Part shown: positions 14,340 through 19,364 of the stretch, piece after piece
Layout of the letters: every line of letters begins with the position of its first letter
How positions within the stretch are numbered: position 1 is the stretch's first letter
DNA from: Verrucomicrobiota bacterium
GTDB lineage: Bacteria > Verrucomicrobiota > Verrucomicrobiia > Verrucomicrobiales > DEV007
Assembly: GCA_045046875.1 (NCBI GenBank)
Contig: JASFYY010000013.1
Location: 1-38,844, forward strand
Direction of reading: 5' to 3'
Length of the DNA stretch: 38,844 nt
Translations under genes and position numbers: made by a program
Notes under the pieces: model-generated
Seen by the model: only the letters and a program-made list of their open reading frames with translations
Told to the model about the DNA's origin: nothing
Databases searched by the model: none

Positions 14340-14451
14340 GCTTTGTTTTAGCCTATGTGGTCTGTTTAGAGCAGGAGTGAAGCGAGACAAAGGCTTGCGG
14401 CAGGAGGATTTGTCCACTATGAATGGCGGCTCACAACAGTGATTGATAAAG

Positions 14452-16995
14452 ATGACGGAACGACGCAAACAATTTCCTTTTGACGAGTTTGAACCCAAGT
14501 GGCAGGCGCTGTGGGACAAAAACAAGACTTTCGCGGTGGCCAATCCGGGTGATGCGGGTTTTGATCCGTCAAAACCCAAGTATTTTGTGCTCGATATGTA
14601 CCCTTACCCGAGTGGCTCGGGTTTGCATGTGGGGCATCCGGAGGGTTACACCGCGACGGATATCATTGGGCGTTTTAAGGCACGCAGTGGTTTTAATGTA
14701 TTGCATCCGATGGGCTGGGACGCTTTTGGTCTGCCGGCCGAGCAGCACGCGATCAAAACAGGTGAGCATCCGCGCATCAATACTGCTAACAATATAGATA
14801 ATTTTCGCCGCCAGCTGAAGTCTTTGGGTTTTGCCTACGACTGGGATCGTGAGATCAATACCACGGACCCGGATTATGTGAAGTGGACGCAGTGGATTTT
14901 TCTCCAGCTTTATAACAGTTATTTTGACGAAAAGACGCAAAAAGCCCGCCCGGTGAGCGAGTTGGAAGAACAGGGTTTGAGCCGCGATGAGATTGATGAT
15001 CGTCGTTTGGCCTACGTGGCGGAGACGCCGGTGAACTGGTCGCCGGATCTTGGTACGGTATTGGCGAATGAAGAGGTGGAGGAATGGCGAGCCAAAGGGC
15101 ACACGGTCGAGCGTCGCCCGTTGCGTCAGTGGATGCTGAGGATCACGGCTTACGCCCAGCGTTTGATTGATGAATTGGACGATTTGGATTGGCCGGAGGG
15201 GATCAAGTTGTTGCAGAAAAACTGGATCGGCCGCAGCGAGGGCGCTGAGGTGGCTTTTCAGATTGGAGATCAGTCGGTGACGGTTTTCACCACCCGCCCG
15301 GATACGCTTTATGGGGCGACCTACATGGTGCTGGCACCGGAGCATCCACTGGTGGATGAAATCGCTGGTGATGAGCAAAAGCAGGCGATAGCGGATTATC
15401 GGGTGAAGTGTTCGGTTAAGTCGGATTTGGAGCGCACCGAGTTGGCGAAAGAGAAGAGCGGGGTGTTCACGGGTGGTTATGCGGTGAATCCGGTTAATGA
15501 TGAAAAGATCCCAGTGTGGATCGCTGATTATGTGCTGATGAGTTACGGCACCGGAGCGATCATGGCGGTACCCGCACACGATGAACGGGATTTCGAATTT
15601 GCCCAGCAGTATGACATCCCAATCGTCGAGGTGGTGAAAAATACGTCCGACGAAAAAAATGAAGGCGATTGTTTTTCAGGCGAGGGCATCGCGATCAACT
15701 CGCCGATGTTTGAGGGCTTGCCGACGGCTGAGGCCAAGGAGAAAATCTGTGCCTGGTTGGAGGAAAAAGAATTGGGACGCAAGACGGTGAATTACAAATT
15801 GCGCGACTGGTTATTTTCGCGTCAACGTTACTGGGGCGAACCTTTTCCGATCGTCTGGCGGGATGGCAAACACGAAGCGCTTGCCGAGAGCGAACTGCCC
15901 TTGTTGGCACCGGAGCTGGAGAATTACAAGCCCAGCGGTACACCCGAACCACTGTTGTCAAAAGCGACGGAGTGGGTGAATTGCGGAGAAGGCTTGAAAC
16001 GCGAAACCAATACCATGCCGCAGTGGGCGGGTTCGTGTTGGTATTACTTGAGATACTGTGATGCTAAAAACAAGGAGCGTTTTGTGTCCGAAGAAGCGGA
16101 GAATTATTGGATGAATGTCGATCTTTATATCGGCGGCACCGAGCACGCGGTATTGCATCTGTTGTATGCGCGTTTTTGGCACAAGGTCTTGCACGATCTC
16201 GGTCAGGTTTCGACGATTGAACCGTTTCAGAGATTGGTGAATCAAGGGCTGATCATGGGCGAGGACGGGGTCAAGATGTCCAAGAGCCGTGGTAATGTGG
16301 TGAACCCCGATGACGTGGTGGAAGGTTATGGCGCGGACAGCCTGCGTTTGTATGAGATGTTCATGGGCCCCTTGGAGCAGGTCAAGCCCTGGTCGATGAA
16401 AGGGGTGGAGGGCGTGTACCGTTTCCTTGGTCGTGTGTGGCGCCTGGTGATGGAGATGGATCAAGAGGGGAGCTGGAGCATGCAGGACAAGTTGGCGCAA
16501 GCGGACTGTGATAAAAAAACGCTCAAGGTGTTGCACCAGACGATCAAAAAAGTCAGTGAGGATATCGAGAGCCTGAGTTTTAACACGGCGATTTCGCAGA
16601 TGATGGTTTGCACCAATGAGTTGAACAAACTCGAGGTATTGCCGCTGTCTGCGGTGGAGACCCTGTTGAGTGTGTTGAACCCTTTCGCTCCGCATGTGAC
16701 GGAGGAGTTGCATGCTTTGCTGGCCGAAAAGTTTCCGCAGAGTGTGTCTGGTGAACTTTCCCAAATCGACTGGCCACAGTGGAACGAGGATTACTTGATC
16801 GAAGACGAAATTGAAATAGTTGTGCAGGTGAATGGCAAGCTGCGAGATAGGATAACCATCAGTAAGGATGCTGATAAGGAGGAAGTGGAGAAACTGGCTT
16901 TGGATCGGGATAAGGTGAAAGAACACATTGATGGTAAGACGGTGCGGAAGGTGATTGTCGTGCCGGGTAGGCTGGTGAACGTGGTGGCGAATTGA
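14452..16995 (+). CDS. leuS: Leucine--tRNA ligase
   Basis: [21 protein letters not shown] editing domain, [24 protein letters not shown] and VQVNGKLR motifs. Confidence 0.98.
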
Positions 16996-17054
16996 GGGAT
17001 AAGGCCACCGTCAGCAAAGAGGTCGAGAAAGACGAAGTGGAAAATCAGTCTTTG
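16992..17054 (+). pseudogene. Diverged duplicate fragment of the leuS 3' region
   Basis: [21 protein letters not shown] aligns without gaps to Leu[22 protein letters not shown] (16840-16902) at 11/21 aa and 43/63 nt. Confidence 0.75.
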
Positions 17055-17182
17055 ATCACCGTTATTCCAGCACAGGACTCCCGTCCCGTGTGCGGTCGCC
17101 ATCGGATCGAGGATCGAGCTCACCGGATGTTTTTGAAGGCGAATGTGATTGGGGTAAACCACAGGGCAGGGAGGTCTGGTAG
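17055..17182 (+). pseudogene. mazE: MazE-type antitoxin, C-terminal remnant
   Basis: GRHRIED followed, in another frame, by the typical DWGKPQGREVW* ending. The N-terminal AbrB domain is absent. Confidence 0.8.
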
Positions 17183-17549
17183 AGTCTTCCTATGTTCCGG
17201 CACAAGGCGATTTTGTTGTGATCTCCTTTGACCCCCAAGCTGGCCATGAGCAGAGATGGCGACGACCAGGGCTCATGGTAAGTGTAGATCAGTTCAACCG
17301 AGGGGAGGTCTGGCATTTTGCTGCCCGATAACGAACACAGGTCGCGGCACGGCTTTTCATGTGCCTGCTCCTGTTGATTCAGGACTAACTGGATTTGTGA
17401 GGTGTGAACAGATGAAGTCTATCGATTATCGAGCACGAAGCATCAAACGGGCGGGTGAAGCATCCCGAAAATTTTTGGAGGAGGTGCTCTCGGTAATCGA
17501 CGCCTGCCTTTTCACCAAGAGCGAACAAAGCATTGATCCAAATACCTGA
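17183..17549 (+). pseudogene. mazF: MazF/PemK endoribonuclease toxin, frameshifted
   Basis: YVPAQGDFVVISFDPQAGHEQRWRRPGLMVS, then a frameshift near 17305 into GLAFCCPITNT...EQMKSIDYRAR. There is no ATG at the expected start. Confidence 0.88.
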
Positions 17550-17661: not shown

Positions 17662-17712
17662 TAATCATCCTTGCATATTAAAAGCATGCATTTTAATATG
17701 CAAGGATGATTA
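17662..17712 (+). promoter_or_regulatory. Perfect 22-bp inverted repeat overlapping a sigma70 promoter and the start codon
   Basis: TAATCATCCTTGCATATTAAAA-7 nt-TTTTAATATGCAAGGATGATTA, containing TTGCAT-17 bp-TAATAT and the ATG at 17706. Confidence 0.75.
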
Positions 17713-18878
17713 AGAGGGCAGTATATGAAAAAACGCTCCAAGCGCTTACTCGGCAAGCCGCTGTAGCCCTTATCGGGCCACGACAAGTTGGCAAAACAAC
17801 TTTGGCTTATGATATAGCTGAAGGTAGAAAATCTGTGTATCTCGACCTTGAAGCGATTGAAGATCGAGAAAAGCTTAATAATACGGTGTTATTTCTGACT
17901 CAGAATGAAGATAAGCTGGTTATTCTTGATGAGATCCATCGCATGCCGGAAATATTTCAAACCTTGCGCGGTCTGATTGACCAAGGGCGCCGCAAGGGTT
18001 TGCGCACAGGACGTTTTCTCATCTTAGGATCTGCGTCAATTGATCTCTTGCGCCAATCCGGTGAATCGCTTGCTGGCCGGATTGAGTATATTGATATGGT
18101 GCCTTTGAATATTTTGGAAACTAATGTCGGAGAGAATCCGGATCCGAGCAAACTATGGGTGCGCGGCGGGTTTCCTGACAGTTATCTGGCTGCGAATGAT
18201 GAAGATAGTTATGTTTATAGACGCAATTTTATTCGTACCTATTTGGAAAGGGATGTGCCACAATTTGGTCCTCGTATAGCCGCAGAAACGCTTGAGCGGT
18301 TATGGATCATGCTGGCCCATAGTCAGGGGCAGTTTTTGAATGCATCGAAGTTAGCTGGAAGTCTCTCTATTTCTGCGCCAACAGTAAGCAGCTATATTGA
18401 TCTTTTAACTGATCTTTTACTTGTCCGGCGGTTGCCGCCTTTGCATGCCAATACAAAAAAACGCCTTGTCAAAGCACCACGTATTTATGTGCGTGATAGT
18501 GGTATCACCCACGCATTGCTGGGTCTTTGCGATTATAATCAGCTTTCCGGACATCCTGTGTTTGGAGCAAGTTGGGAAGGTTTTGTCATTGAAACCCTTT
18601 TATCCGTTGCCTCAGAAAGAACCAAAGCCAGTTTTTACAGAACATCTGCGGGCGCAGAAATTGACTTGATACTAGAATTTCCCAGCGGTGAAAAATGGGC
18701 TATTGAGATTAAAAGTGGTTTGAGCGTAAAGCTGGAAAAGGGTTTTCACAATGCGCTTGAGGATATAAACCCTGATCGCAGCTTTGTGGTTTATGCTGGG
18801 TCAGATCGCTTCCCTGTTACTCAAGAAACTGATGCTATCAGCTTGGCAGAACTGGCACAGGTGTTGAAAGAAATATAG
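17706..18878 (+). CDS. AAA+ ATPase (AAA_14 + DUF4143, COG1373-like)
   Basis: Walker A GPRQVGKT, Walker B VILDEI, LAGRI, RGGFP, an HTH-like region and a C-terminal EIDLI...AIEIK nuclease-like motif. AT-richer than its neighbours. Confidence 0.92.
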   Translation: MIKRAVYEKTLQALTRQAAVALIGPRQVGKTTLAYDIAEGRKSVYLDLEAIEDREKLNNTVLFLTQNEDKLVILDEIHRMPEIFQTLRGLIDQGRRKGLRTGRFLILGSASIDLLRQSGESLAGRIEYIDMVPLNILETNVGENPDPSKLWVRGGFPDSYLAANDEDSYVYRRNFIRTYLERDVPQFGPRIAAETLERLWIMLAHSQGQFLNASKLAGSLSISAPTVSSYIDLLTDLLLVRRLPPLHANTKKRLVKAPRIYVRDSGITHALLGLCDYNQLSGHPVFGASWEGFVIETLLSVASERTKASFYRTSAGAEIDLILEFPSGEKWAIEIKSGLSVKLEKGFHNALEDINPDRSFVVYAGSDRFPVTQETDAISLAELAQVLKEI

Positions 18879-18902: not shown

Positions 18903-19364
18903 CTAAATGTTGTTACCCAAGCGGGAATTTTTCGTATTCTCCACCGCTTCCTTCAACCTCCTGAGCATGTAATAAATCGTGCGGCTGCGCAGGCGGTGGA
19001 GTTCGCTGCCGATGATGCGTGGGATGAAGGATTCGGGCAGCGCGAGGATCTCTTCGGTGGAACAGTCTTTGAGACCTTTGCAGAGGATGGAGGTCAGGGC
19101 CCGGGTCAAGGTTTGCACTTGTGTGCCGAGACTGATTTTGAATTCGATTTTGCCGGTATTGCTGGTTTTGACAAAGATGCCTACGGTGTCGGAGCACTCG
19201 TTGTCTTTGCGCAGGTCTTCGACTTCGAAGGTCTCACCTTCTTGCGGGGCGTATTGCTGCGCTTGTCCGGCTTCGTTGATCAGAGCTTCCCGTTTTTCGT
19301 CATCGGGCAGCTGCTCATAGAAATCAATGATCTGCTGCAAGCGCTGAGGGATGGAATCATTCAT
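18903..19364 (-). CDS. sufE: SufE family sulfur-acceptor protein
   Basis: Conserved-position Cys (ECSDTV), the TEEILALPESFI segment and a C-terminal LRSR motif. Confidence 0.75.
   Translation of the reverse strand: MNDSIPQRLQQIIDFYEQLPDDEKREALINEAGQAQQYAPQEGETFEVEDLRKDNECSDTVGIFVKTSNTGKIEFKISLGTQVQTLTRALTSILCKGLKDCSTEEILALPESFIPRIIGSELHRLRSRTIYYMLRRLKEAVENTKNSRLGNNI

Follow-up and report, generated by a model that had tools for sequence, protein, structure and literature searches.

The 38,844-nt stretch of Verrucomicrobiota DNA analysed here (the window) carries, directly behind an intact leuS gene, a short and decayed second copy of the leuS 3' end, followed by what is left of a mazEF toxin-antitoxin pair. 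A first-pass annotation of this sequence had read the arrangement as the trace of incoming DNA that brought its own leuS tail and pushed the old tail with its cargo downstream, and had predicted that related genomes would hold arrays of such orphan tails interspersed with cargo genes. Our search of relatives revealed arrays of this kind, with old tails pushed downstream, in a family designated f48, which belongs to a different class of the phylum from the window's own family. In f48 the leuS 3' end has been swapped repeatedly as new DNA arrived, apparently without an integrase, and we regard this conclusion as well supported. At the window the first-pass interpretation is partly supported, and the checks that could have refuted it did not do so. 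The cargo-accretion hotspot that had been suggested is shown for f48, not for the family from which the window comes.

Extra leuS tails were found in 20 of the 54 f48 genomes searched, 40 of which have a usable tail. For this count, 18 genomes were scored at E ≤ 0.02 and two, G633 and G663, by DNA comparison; 18 of the 20 were inspected at the DNA level (G661 and G686 were not), and G649 was omitted as ambiguous. Since the f48 loci fetched for comparison were chosen partly by their matches, the fetched set itself gives no rate. With the same search design, guaA yielded no extra tails in the 47 genomes that have the gene, and lysS yielded, among the matches listed, at most one candidate at a contig edge in 48 genomes. 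As a further background, one or two among 524 further genes, in an 800-kb portion of G347, have an orphan tail, and in the window's genome 7 of 3535 genes were flagged, a figure that includes leuS and two doubtful cases. Within 9.3 kb, G347 has a 24-nt piece and four long tails, the latter in a row between cargo genes, and its first orphan shows 11 synonymous codon differences and a single non-synonymous one.

The order in which modules were added can be read from three genomes whose leuS genes are 87-96% alike over the 675 nt that precede the last bin. In the last 75 nt, G682 drops to 75-80% identity against G685 and G347 (from 95% to 75% for the G682/G347 pair), whereas G685 and G347 stay at 92%. 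The orphans that stand before the same four-helix-bundle gene in G682 and G347 are nevertheless alike at 62 of 66 positions, and because the ends diverge while the orphans stay alike, we conclude that the old tails have been pushed downstream. Furthermore, a gene pair that immediately follows leuS in both G559 and G688 is separated from it by an orphan in G633, and the tail of G685 is a mosaic that is G347-like from -76 to -28 and then G682-like, with the cargo of G682. Together with the divergence of the tails, these two observations indicate that in f48 each new module is inserted adjacent to leuS and that the crossovers fall within the final 25-80 nt of the gene. Synonymous diversity among 19 genomes is likewise highest in the last 20 codons (0.51-0.56 versus 0.26-0.46).

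The left ends of the orphans vary and reveal no fixed crossover site, spreading from -62 to -177 across 27 tails, with 20 of the 27 falling within -62 to -104; longer copies exist besides, such as one of 270 nt in G361. Sixteen of the 27 orphans start no more than 45 nt from the end of the upstream ORF, and 24 of the 27 upstream ORFs are co-oriented with leuS. The f48 junctions could not be placed to single-base precision. A CATG/ATCATG motif that appeared frequent at junctions by eye was not significant after correction (best p 7e-5 among 5376 words, in 30 junctions after one duplicate was dropped), and a 45-nt stretch common to the upstream sides of two G347 orphans had no informative match elsewhere in five genomes. 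We did not use the tail at a contig start in G684 as proof of polarity, as it may be either an orphan or a true end.

To characterise the cargo, 85 of 128 nearby ORFs were scanned against Pfam and subsets against NCBIfam, PHROGs and PADLOC. The genes encode restriction-modification, Fic/SoFic, AbiE, AlbA_2, ORF6N and PDC-S01 proteins, four-helix-bundle proteins, hydrolases and metabolic enzymes, and about 30 have no family. No nuclease family is common to the scanned ORFs, which include only a DpnII-like enzyme, a YajD-type HNH piece and the AlbA_2 protein, and no integrase was detected among them, although serine recombinases were not searched as a family. In agreement with the first-pass remark that no integrase was in view, the tyrosine integrase family PF00589 has no match on the window's contig; neither does it match on G347:C6 or within 200 kb of leuS in G692. 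No viral contig carrying a leuS tail was found (plasmids were not searched), and the 14 phage records that did match span the whole query, not just a short end. Of note, in both G347 and G375 the cargo nearest to leuS on its downstream side is an unknown protein of 151-171 aa that has look-alikes in phages (L126:17897-18409 and L141:13394-13846); an Atlas look-up of the recurrent 151-aa form returned only unnamed clusters, often from phage.

Across a sample of the phylum, 13 of 401 genomes gave more than one tail match. Six of these have downstream tails on the same contig (G347, G398, G633, G361, G582 and G425), four have tails elsewhere or at contig edges (G292, G440, G621 and G622), and three gave weak, unrelated matches. 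G347, G398 and G633 are members of f48, for which the nearest named leuS tail is that of a Kiritimatiellales metagenome-assembled genome (80%). Within the class of G347, 130 of 141 genomes gave a match, and extra or tail-only matches outside f48 were seen in G361, G292, G440, G701 and, weakly, G695; the high rate is therefore specific to f48. Beyond the phylum sample, blastn detected orphans in none of 78 genome loci (mostly Gammaproteobacteria; 2 of 80 were too short) and in none of 62 metagenome loci (18 of 80 were too short), a test that missed the window's own orphan and hence sees only well-kept tails.

Three loci from this survey deserve separate description. On G622:C5 (~119100-122100, L136), about 8.5 kb from leuS and on the opposite strand, the end of a gene that appears RsmB-like from its motifs continues in frame into a leuS tail, behind which stands an ATPase-like ORF. 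On G292:C23 (L137), a contig other than that of leuS, a long coiled-coil gene, SMC-like by eye, is followed immediately by a 130-codon leuS 3' fragment, and on G621:C116 (L133) a 36-nt direct repeat from the leuS stop flanks a 166-codon ORF.

In the window, the match described by the first-pass annotation is genuine. Positions 16992-17054 match 16840-16902 at 43 of 63 nt and 11 of 21 aa, with mismatches rich in third codon positions (5/4/11 by position), and the preceding bases read GGELRD against NGKLRD in leuS, as stated. The next best of ~11 million 63-nt windows in the genome reaches 37/63. When the 21-aa fragment was compared with the whole of LeuS, its best ungapped BLOSUM62 score, 61 at residue 800, was equalled by none of 5000 shuffles, and the same holds (0/5000) for the score of 43 that the 14-aa core gives by itself. 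The extent originally given to the fragment needs correction, since the matching stretch is a composite of the leuS stop region, a second leuS piece and mazE. Positions 16992-17000 are the leuS stop and 5 nt that are shared with the sister genome G005, which has no insert; homology to this empty allele stops at 17000, where a contig from sequencing run X4 and a joint from run X1 likewise end. From ~17039, the residues ENQSL align with the intact mazE of G003 and G005. Judged by these alignments, the leuS-derived core comprises only about 17001-17044. The view that the whole fragment is mazE can accordingly be accepted from ~17039 and is rejected for 17001-17038, where the core fits LeuS far better: the first 38 nt of the orphan match leuS of G005 and of G003 at 28/38 each and the window's own leuS at 25/38, compared with 15/38 and 8/38 for mazE. 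Alignment of the orphan to G003 leuS gives 34/39 nt. Against its own genome alone, the 38-nt core is not unique, as five windows reach 25/38; the 44-nt core scores 30 there, with a next best of 28. Both joins sit on microhomologies (Table 1). Sequencing runs gave no independent confirmation of the junction, the contigs assembled from them being G005-like and none spanning 17003-17169; a search of sequencing runs found no run with half of the words and, among those listed, no RNA dataset.

Table 1. Features of the leuS region, in window coordinates.
Feature	Position	Strand	Description
leuS	14443..16995	+	intact, 850-codon ORF; tRNA-synt_1, editing and anticodon domains
Current leuS tail (last 52 codons)	16837..16995	+	probably replaced by recombination; third-position excess versus G005
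Left junction	16986..17000	+	natural microhomology between the leuS stop region and the GKLRD codons lying 152 nt upstream of it
Orphan leuS fragment, LeuS residues ~803-816	17001..17044	+	decayed; divergence at congener level
Right junction	17039..17056	+	microhomology: leuS EVEK/LAL codons versus mid-mazE
mazE 3' half	17039..17182	+	lacks the promoter and the N-terminal half; 10 nt deleted near 17112; aligned to intact mazE of G003 and G005
mazF pseudogene	17182..17549	+	PemK_toxin matches in two frames
Perfect 22-nt inverted repeat	17662..17712	.	overlaps ATPase start; accompanies the gene in G003
AAA_14 + DUF4143 ATPase	17706..18878	+	intact; PADLOC candidate defence gene PDC-S01, E 3.6e-88
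sufE	18903..19364	-	convergent; G005 homology resumes at 18937

Whether the tail now present on the window's leuS is itself a replacement was judged mainly against G005. Third-position differences affect 17 of 52 codons in the tail versus 100 of 780 in the body (p=2e-4); polarised, 10 are derived in this genome, 6 in G005 and 3 are ambiguous. They become dense at codon 801, at the LRD codons where the orphan begins, and at 3/3 clearly polarised sites within its span the orphan has the base of G005 and not that of the current tail. The suggestion that the current tail is rich in rare codons also held up, with 4 of 9 Ile/Arg codons being rare in the last 52 codons versus 9 of 73 before (p=0.03); the tail of G005 has 2/9. 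Among congeners, both the orphan and mazEF score best against G003, and 6 of the orphan's 14 third positions depart from G005. Since its best match is to G003, as for mazEF, the orphan is probably not the vertical tail of this lineage, and was probably an earlier visitor that arrived with mazEF. The excess of synonymous divergence fits tail replacement; its direction at the window locus is not proven.

Several observations weigh against recurrent replacement, at the window or in general. The current tail is 96% identical in aa and 88% in nt to that of G005 and shares the 5 nt after the stop, so that it could still be native, and leuC, one of eight control genes, is also divergent at its end (13/52). 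For the crossover near VNGKLRD put forward in the first pass, the only support at this locus is the synonymous excess starting at the LRD codons; the closeness to G005 and the similar behaviour of leuC tell against it. Seven of 10 congener pairs show a raised value in the last bin, and the trees of body and tail follow the same broad order, the tail with 31% bootstrap, without the clear discordance that had been looked for. The replacing tail brought no cargo, and neither mazEF nor the PDC-S01 ATPase stands behind leuS in any of the 62 metagenome loci or at the other loci examined apart from the window. In the window's family, 134 genomes were searched and 119 had a tail, and a downstream copy occurs in just 2 of these 119, namely this genome and G029, where a 101-nt copy with four synonymous differences flanks an IS200-like Y1 transposase gene. 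In f48, tail pairs with common downstream DNA are barely more alike than others (50.7 vs 49.1 of 66, with one frameshifted orphan included). Lastly, homology-facilitated illegitimate recombination (HFIR), the type of event that we invoke below, is described as rare in experiments (PMC3240628). It should be added that divergent tracts begin within ~80 nt (f48) or 150-210 nt (window) of the stop, and that an upstream anchor from a near-identical donor would be invisible.

On balance, we think it somewhat probable that the leuS 3' end serves as an integrase-free landing site at which gene ends are serially displaced by host recombination. A module would consist of a leuS tail and the gene or genes behind it. 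DNA from a relative would cross over near the end of the resident leuS and supply a synonymous new tail, and its other end would join the resident old tail, either by microhomology or by homology through an orphan tail already present in the donor; the old tail and its cargo would thereby shift downstream and decay. The first event would need an illegitimate join, while later on orphans would give a second homologous end, or alternatively allow tail-to-tail excision into a circle. Once they exist, orphans would in this way supply both recombination ends and the site would feed itself, which would explain why the process is gene- and lineage-specific. The window may then be seen as a collapsed relic of two displacement events and two microhomology joins: a G003-like module of tail and mazEF would have sat on leuS, a later tail from the G005-like species group would have entered ahead of that module by way of the LRD/stop microhomology, another deletion, at a second microhomology, would have removed what remained of the old tail together with half of mazE and its promoter, and the toxin gene mazF would have been inactivated. 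A bolder version, to which we give little credence, is that the leuS 3' end is the attachment site of self-propagating, integrase-free cassettes, in which any cargo flanked by two tails can leave and re-enter through tail-to-tail recombination, possibly with the aid of an unrecognised nuclease that cuts the conserved terminal codons.

Displacement by host recombination has to be weighed against four other explanations. It is unlikely, if worth serious thought, that the polarity at the window was the reverse, with the native tail kept and a congener tail plus mazEF joined behind the stop at the stop/LRD microhomology and then trimmed by deletion. The match of the current tail and its following 5 nt to the empty allele of G005 and the congener-like third positions of the orphan are what one would expect, and the G622 fusion illustrates that tail-plus-cargo modules do land at other gene ends; yet the excess divergence of the current tail, which starts at the left edge of the orphan, would become coincidence, and the right side would lack a homologous anchor, since leuS and sufE were seen to be adjacent only here and in G005-like DNA.

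We consider it improbable that a local slip created the orphan, that is, a 152-nt tandem duplication of the gene's own end through the built-in microhomology, after which the copy would have decayed neutrally and a deletion would have reached into a neighbouring mazE. The repeat unit would run exactly from the stop region to LRD, the third-position bias could stem from the coding copy alone, and decay is considerable, as the ~7.5% change at first and second positions of mazF shows. The orphan is nevertheless nearer to leuS of G005 and G003 than to its own gene, it has residues typical of other congeners, and a slip leaves the arrays elsewhere unexplained.

A homing nuclease, as in the yeast WHO elements, is similarly improbable. 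It would cut the conserved K-T-x-R-K-V-I-V-V-P codons, and repair from the donor would install a resistant, recoded tail together with cargo. The architecture fits the WHO model (PMC7282813), the differences cluster in the most conserved codons (five successive ones, 835-839, in the window), and heavily recoded alleles occur in G347, G685 and G398. Against this stand the lack of a common nuclease family among the scanned ORFs, the scatter of the left ends and the absence of a motif that survives correction.

Prophage e14 is a single element driven by its integrase. Islands that encoded an integrase, had their attB at the 3' end of leuS and have since decayed would resemble e14 at icd, whose insertion provides the gene with a fresh 3' end while the original end persists as the icdC pseudogene, the same kind of C-terminal remnant (PMC13626634), and 20 of 27 left ends do fall within -62 to -104, but such islands are very improbable here, as neither the loci nor the cargo ORFs scanned contain PF00589 (serine recombinases again not having been searched as a family), no tail-bearing viral contig was found, the 14 phage records match the whole query and the modules mostly consist of one or two genes.

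Displacement at leuS has its closest parallels in two known systems. WHO elements replace the 3' end of the yeast gene FBA1 and push old ends downstream, and the downstream fragment acts as a second recombination site (PMC7282813; bioRxiv 10.64898/2026.08.13.744650). As in Torulaspora and Lachancea, the 3' end of an essential gene is replaced repeatedly at leuS, with the newest module adjoining the gene, displaced 3' fragments interspersed with inserted genes (as in the G347 array) and a 3' part that is hyperdiverse relative to the 5' part. The leuS arrays differ in being bacterial, in carrying unrelated genes where WHO is one endonuclease family, and in that their fragment starts are spread without a common cleavage position, although later trimming could hide a site. 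The first-pass comparison with Rhs and contact-dependent inhibition (CDI) loci holds in part: Rhs/MafB (PMC2935791) and the effector-immunity arrays of the Vibrio cholerae type VI secretion system (T6SS; PMC5361080) also have strings of orphan 3' fragments of variable length and no integrase. A circular intermediate was proposed for Rhs displacement (PMC2935791) and HFIR for the T6SS arrays (PMC5361080). The swapped tip there is a variable function, a toxin domain with its immunity gene, whereas leuS tails are near-synonymous ends of an essential enzyme without toxin tips and the novelty lies in separate downstream genes. HFIR combines one homologous end with one short-microhomology join (PMC3240628), and both window junctions are microhomologous; it is, however, usually described as deleting resident DNA and does not by itself account for a gene-specific serial array. 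Integrase-free hotspots of horizontal gene transfer with recombination in flanking core genes, many of them without a known mechanism (PMC5635113), share the fast turnover of defence-type cargo beside a core gene and the lack of a mobile element; they differ in that the model for them is double-crossover replacement, which leaves no orphan tails, and leuS is absent from the main text of that study. The leuS arrays thus work like WHO and Rhs displacement yet fail their defining features, the single nuclease family and the toxin tips, respectively. We found no paper on leuS tail arrays; subscription journals were mostly uncovered, and supplementary tables of island target sites might list leuS.

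The first-pass statement that the orphan runs into a mazE remnant and mazF applies as far as the 3' half of mazE and a following mazF are concerned; mazF is broken too, with an altered start, a frameshift near 17307 and missense changes, and ~7.5% of its first and second positions have changed (15 of 200 sites). The pair has the layout of a type II toxin-antitoxin system, a PemK/MazF-domain gene preceded by mazE, although neither gene is intact. It is 78% identical in nt to mazEF of G003 and 71% to that of G005, and G003 has both mazEF and the ATPase (77%) at other loci. The inverted repeat at the start of the PDC-S01 ATPase gene, conserved together with that gene in G003, may be an autoregulatory operator. 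In G005 the leuS-sufE gap measures only ~120 bp and is without cargo, this empty arrangement recurs in contigs from related populations (runs X1 and X4), and the DNA downstream of leuS is different in each of the four congeners for which the gene is in view. As homology to G005 resumes only within sufE, the last sufE codons differ. These codons (18903-18936) are different in 6/6 genomes of the genus examined, so that the cargo gap has been remodelled from the sufE side too.

Repeated gene ends were also observed elsewhere. On G000:C107 (~16405-17140, L102), a toxin-antitoxin-like pair, PemK-like by eye, lies between 62-nt direct repeats, each made up of the last part of a tonB-like gene and the first part of the gene that follows it; in G005 the site is empty. 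On G000:C47 (23380-26073, L101), a pdxA-like gene is followed by a 468-codon ORF on the opposite strand and a 66-nt orphan pdxA tail (56/66); this cargo is common to G005, and the pdxA polarity comparison gave 57/66 to both copies. Two more genes have short copies of their own ends 0.4-2.7 kb downstream (G000:C106 27029-27487 and G000:C19 70622-71158), of which the C19 copy resembles a repeated gene-end motif of neighbouring small ORFs. In G347, the end of a 515-codon gene on C1 (L271:11760-13304) recurs 2.2 kb downstream as an orphan copy matching at 40/44 nt.

As an example the window is weak and decayed, and its value lies in the arrays that were found from it. In these, the last 20-30 codons of the gene for an essential aminoacyl-tRNA synthetase have been exchanged repeatedly, and phylogenies that use this end will therefore be misled. 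As the arrays keep a scar of every event, the order of events, the position of crossovers and the distance of donors are directly readable, and because the cargo includes defence-type genes and many ORFs without a known family, mostly co-oriented with leuS, the site offers a ready list of candidate defence genes. If the cassette version were true, the system at the leuS 3' end would be the prokaryotic equivalent of the WHO elements, or else an integron that lacks an integrase.

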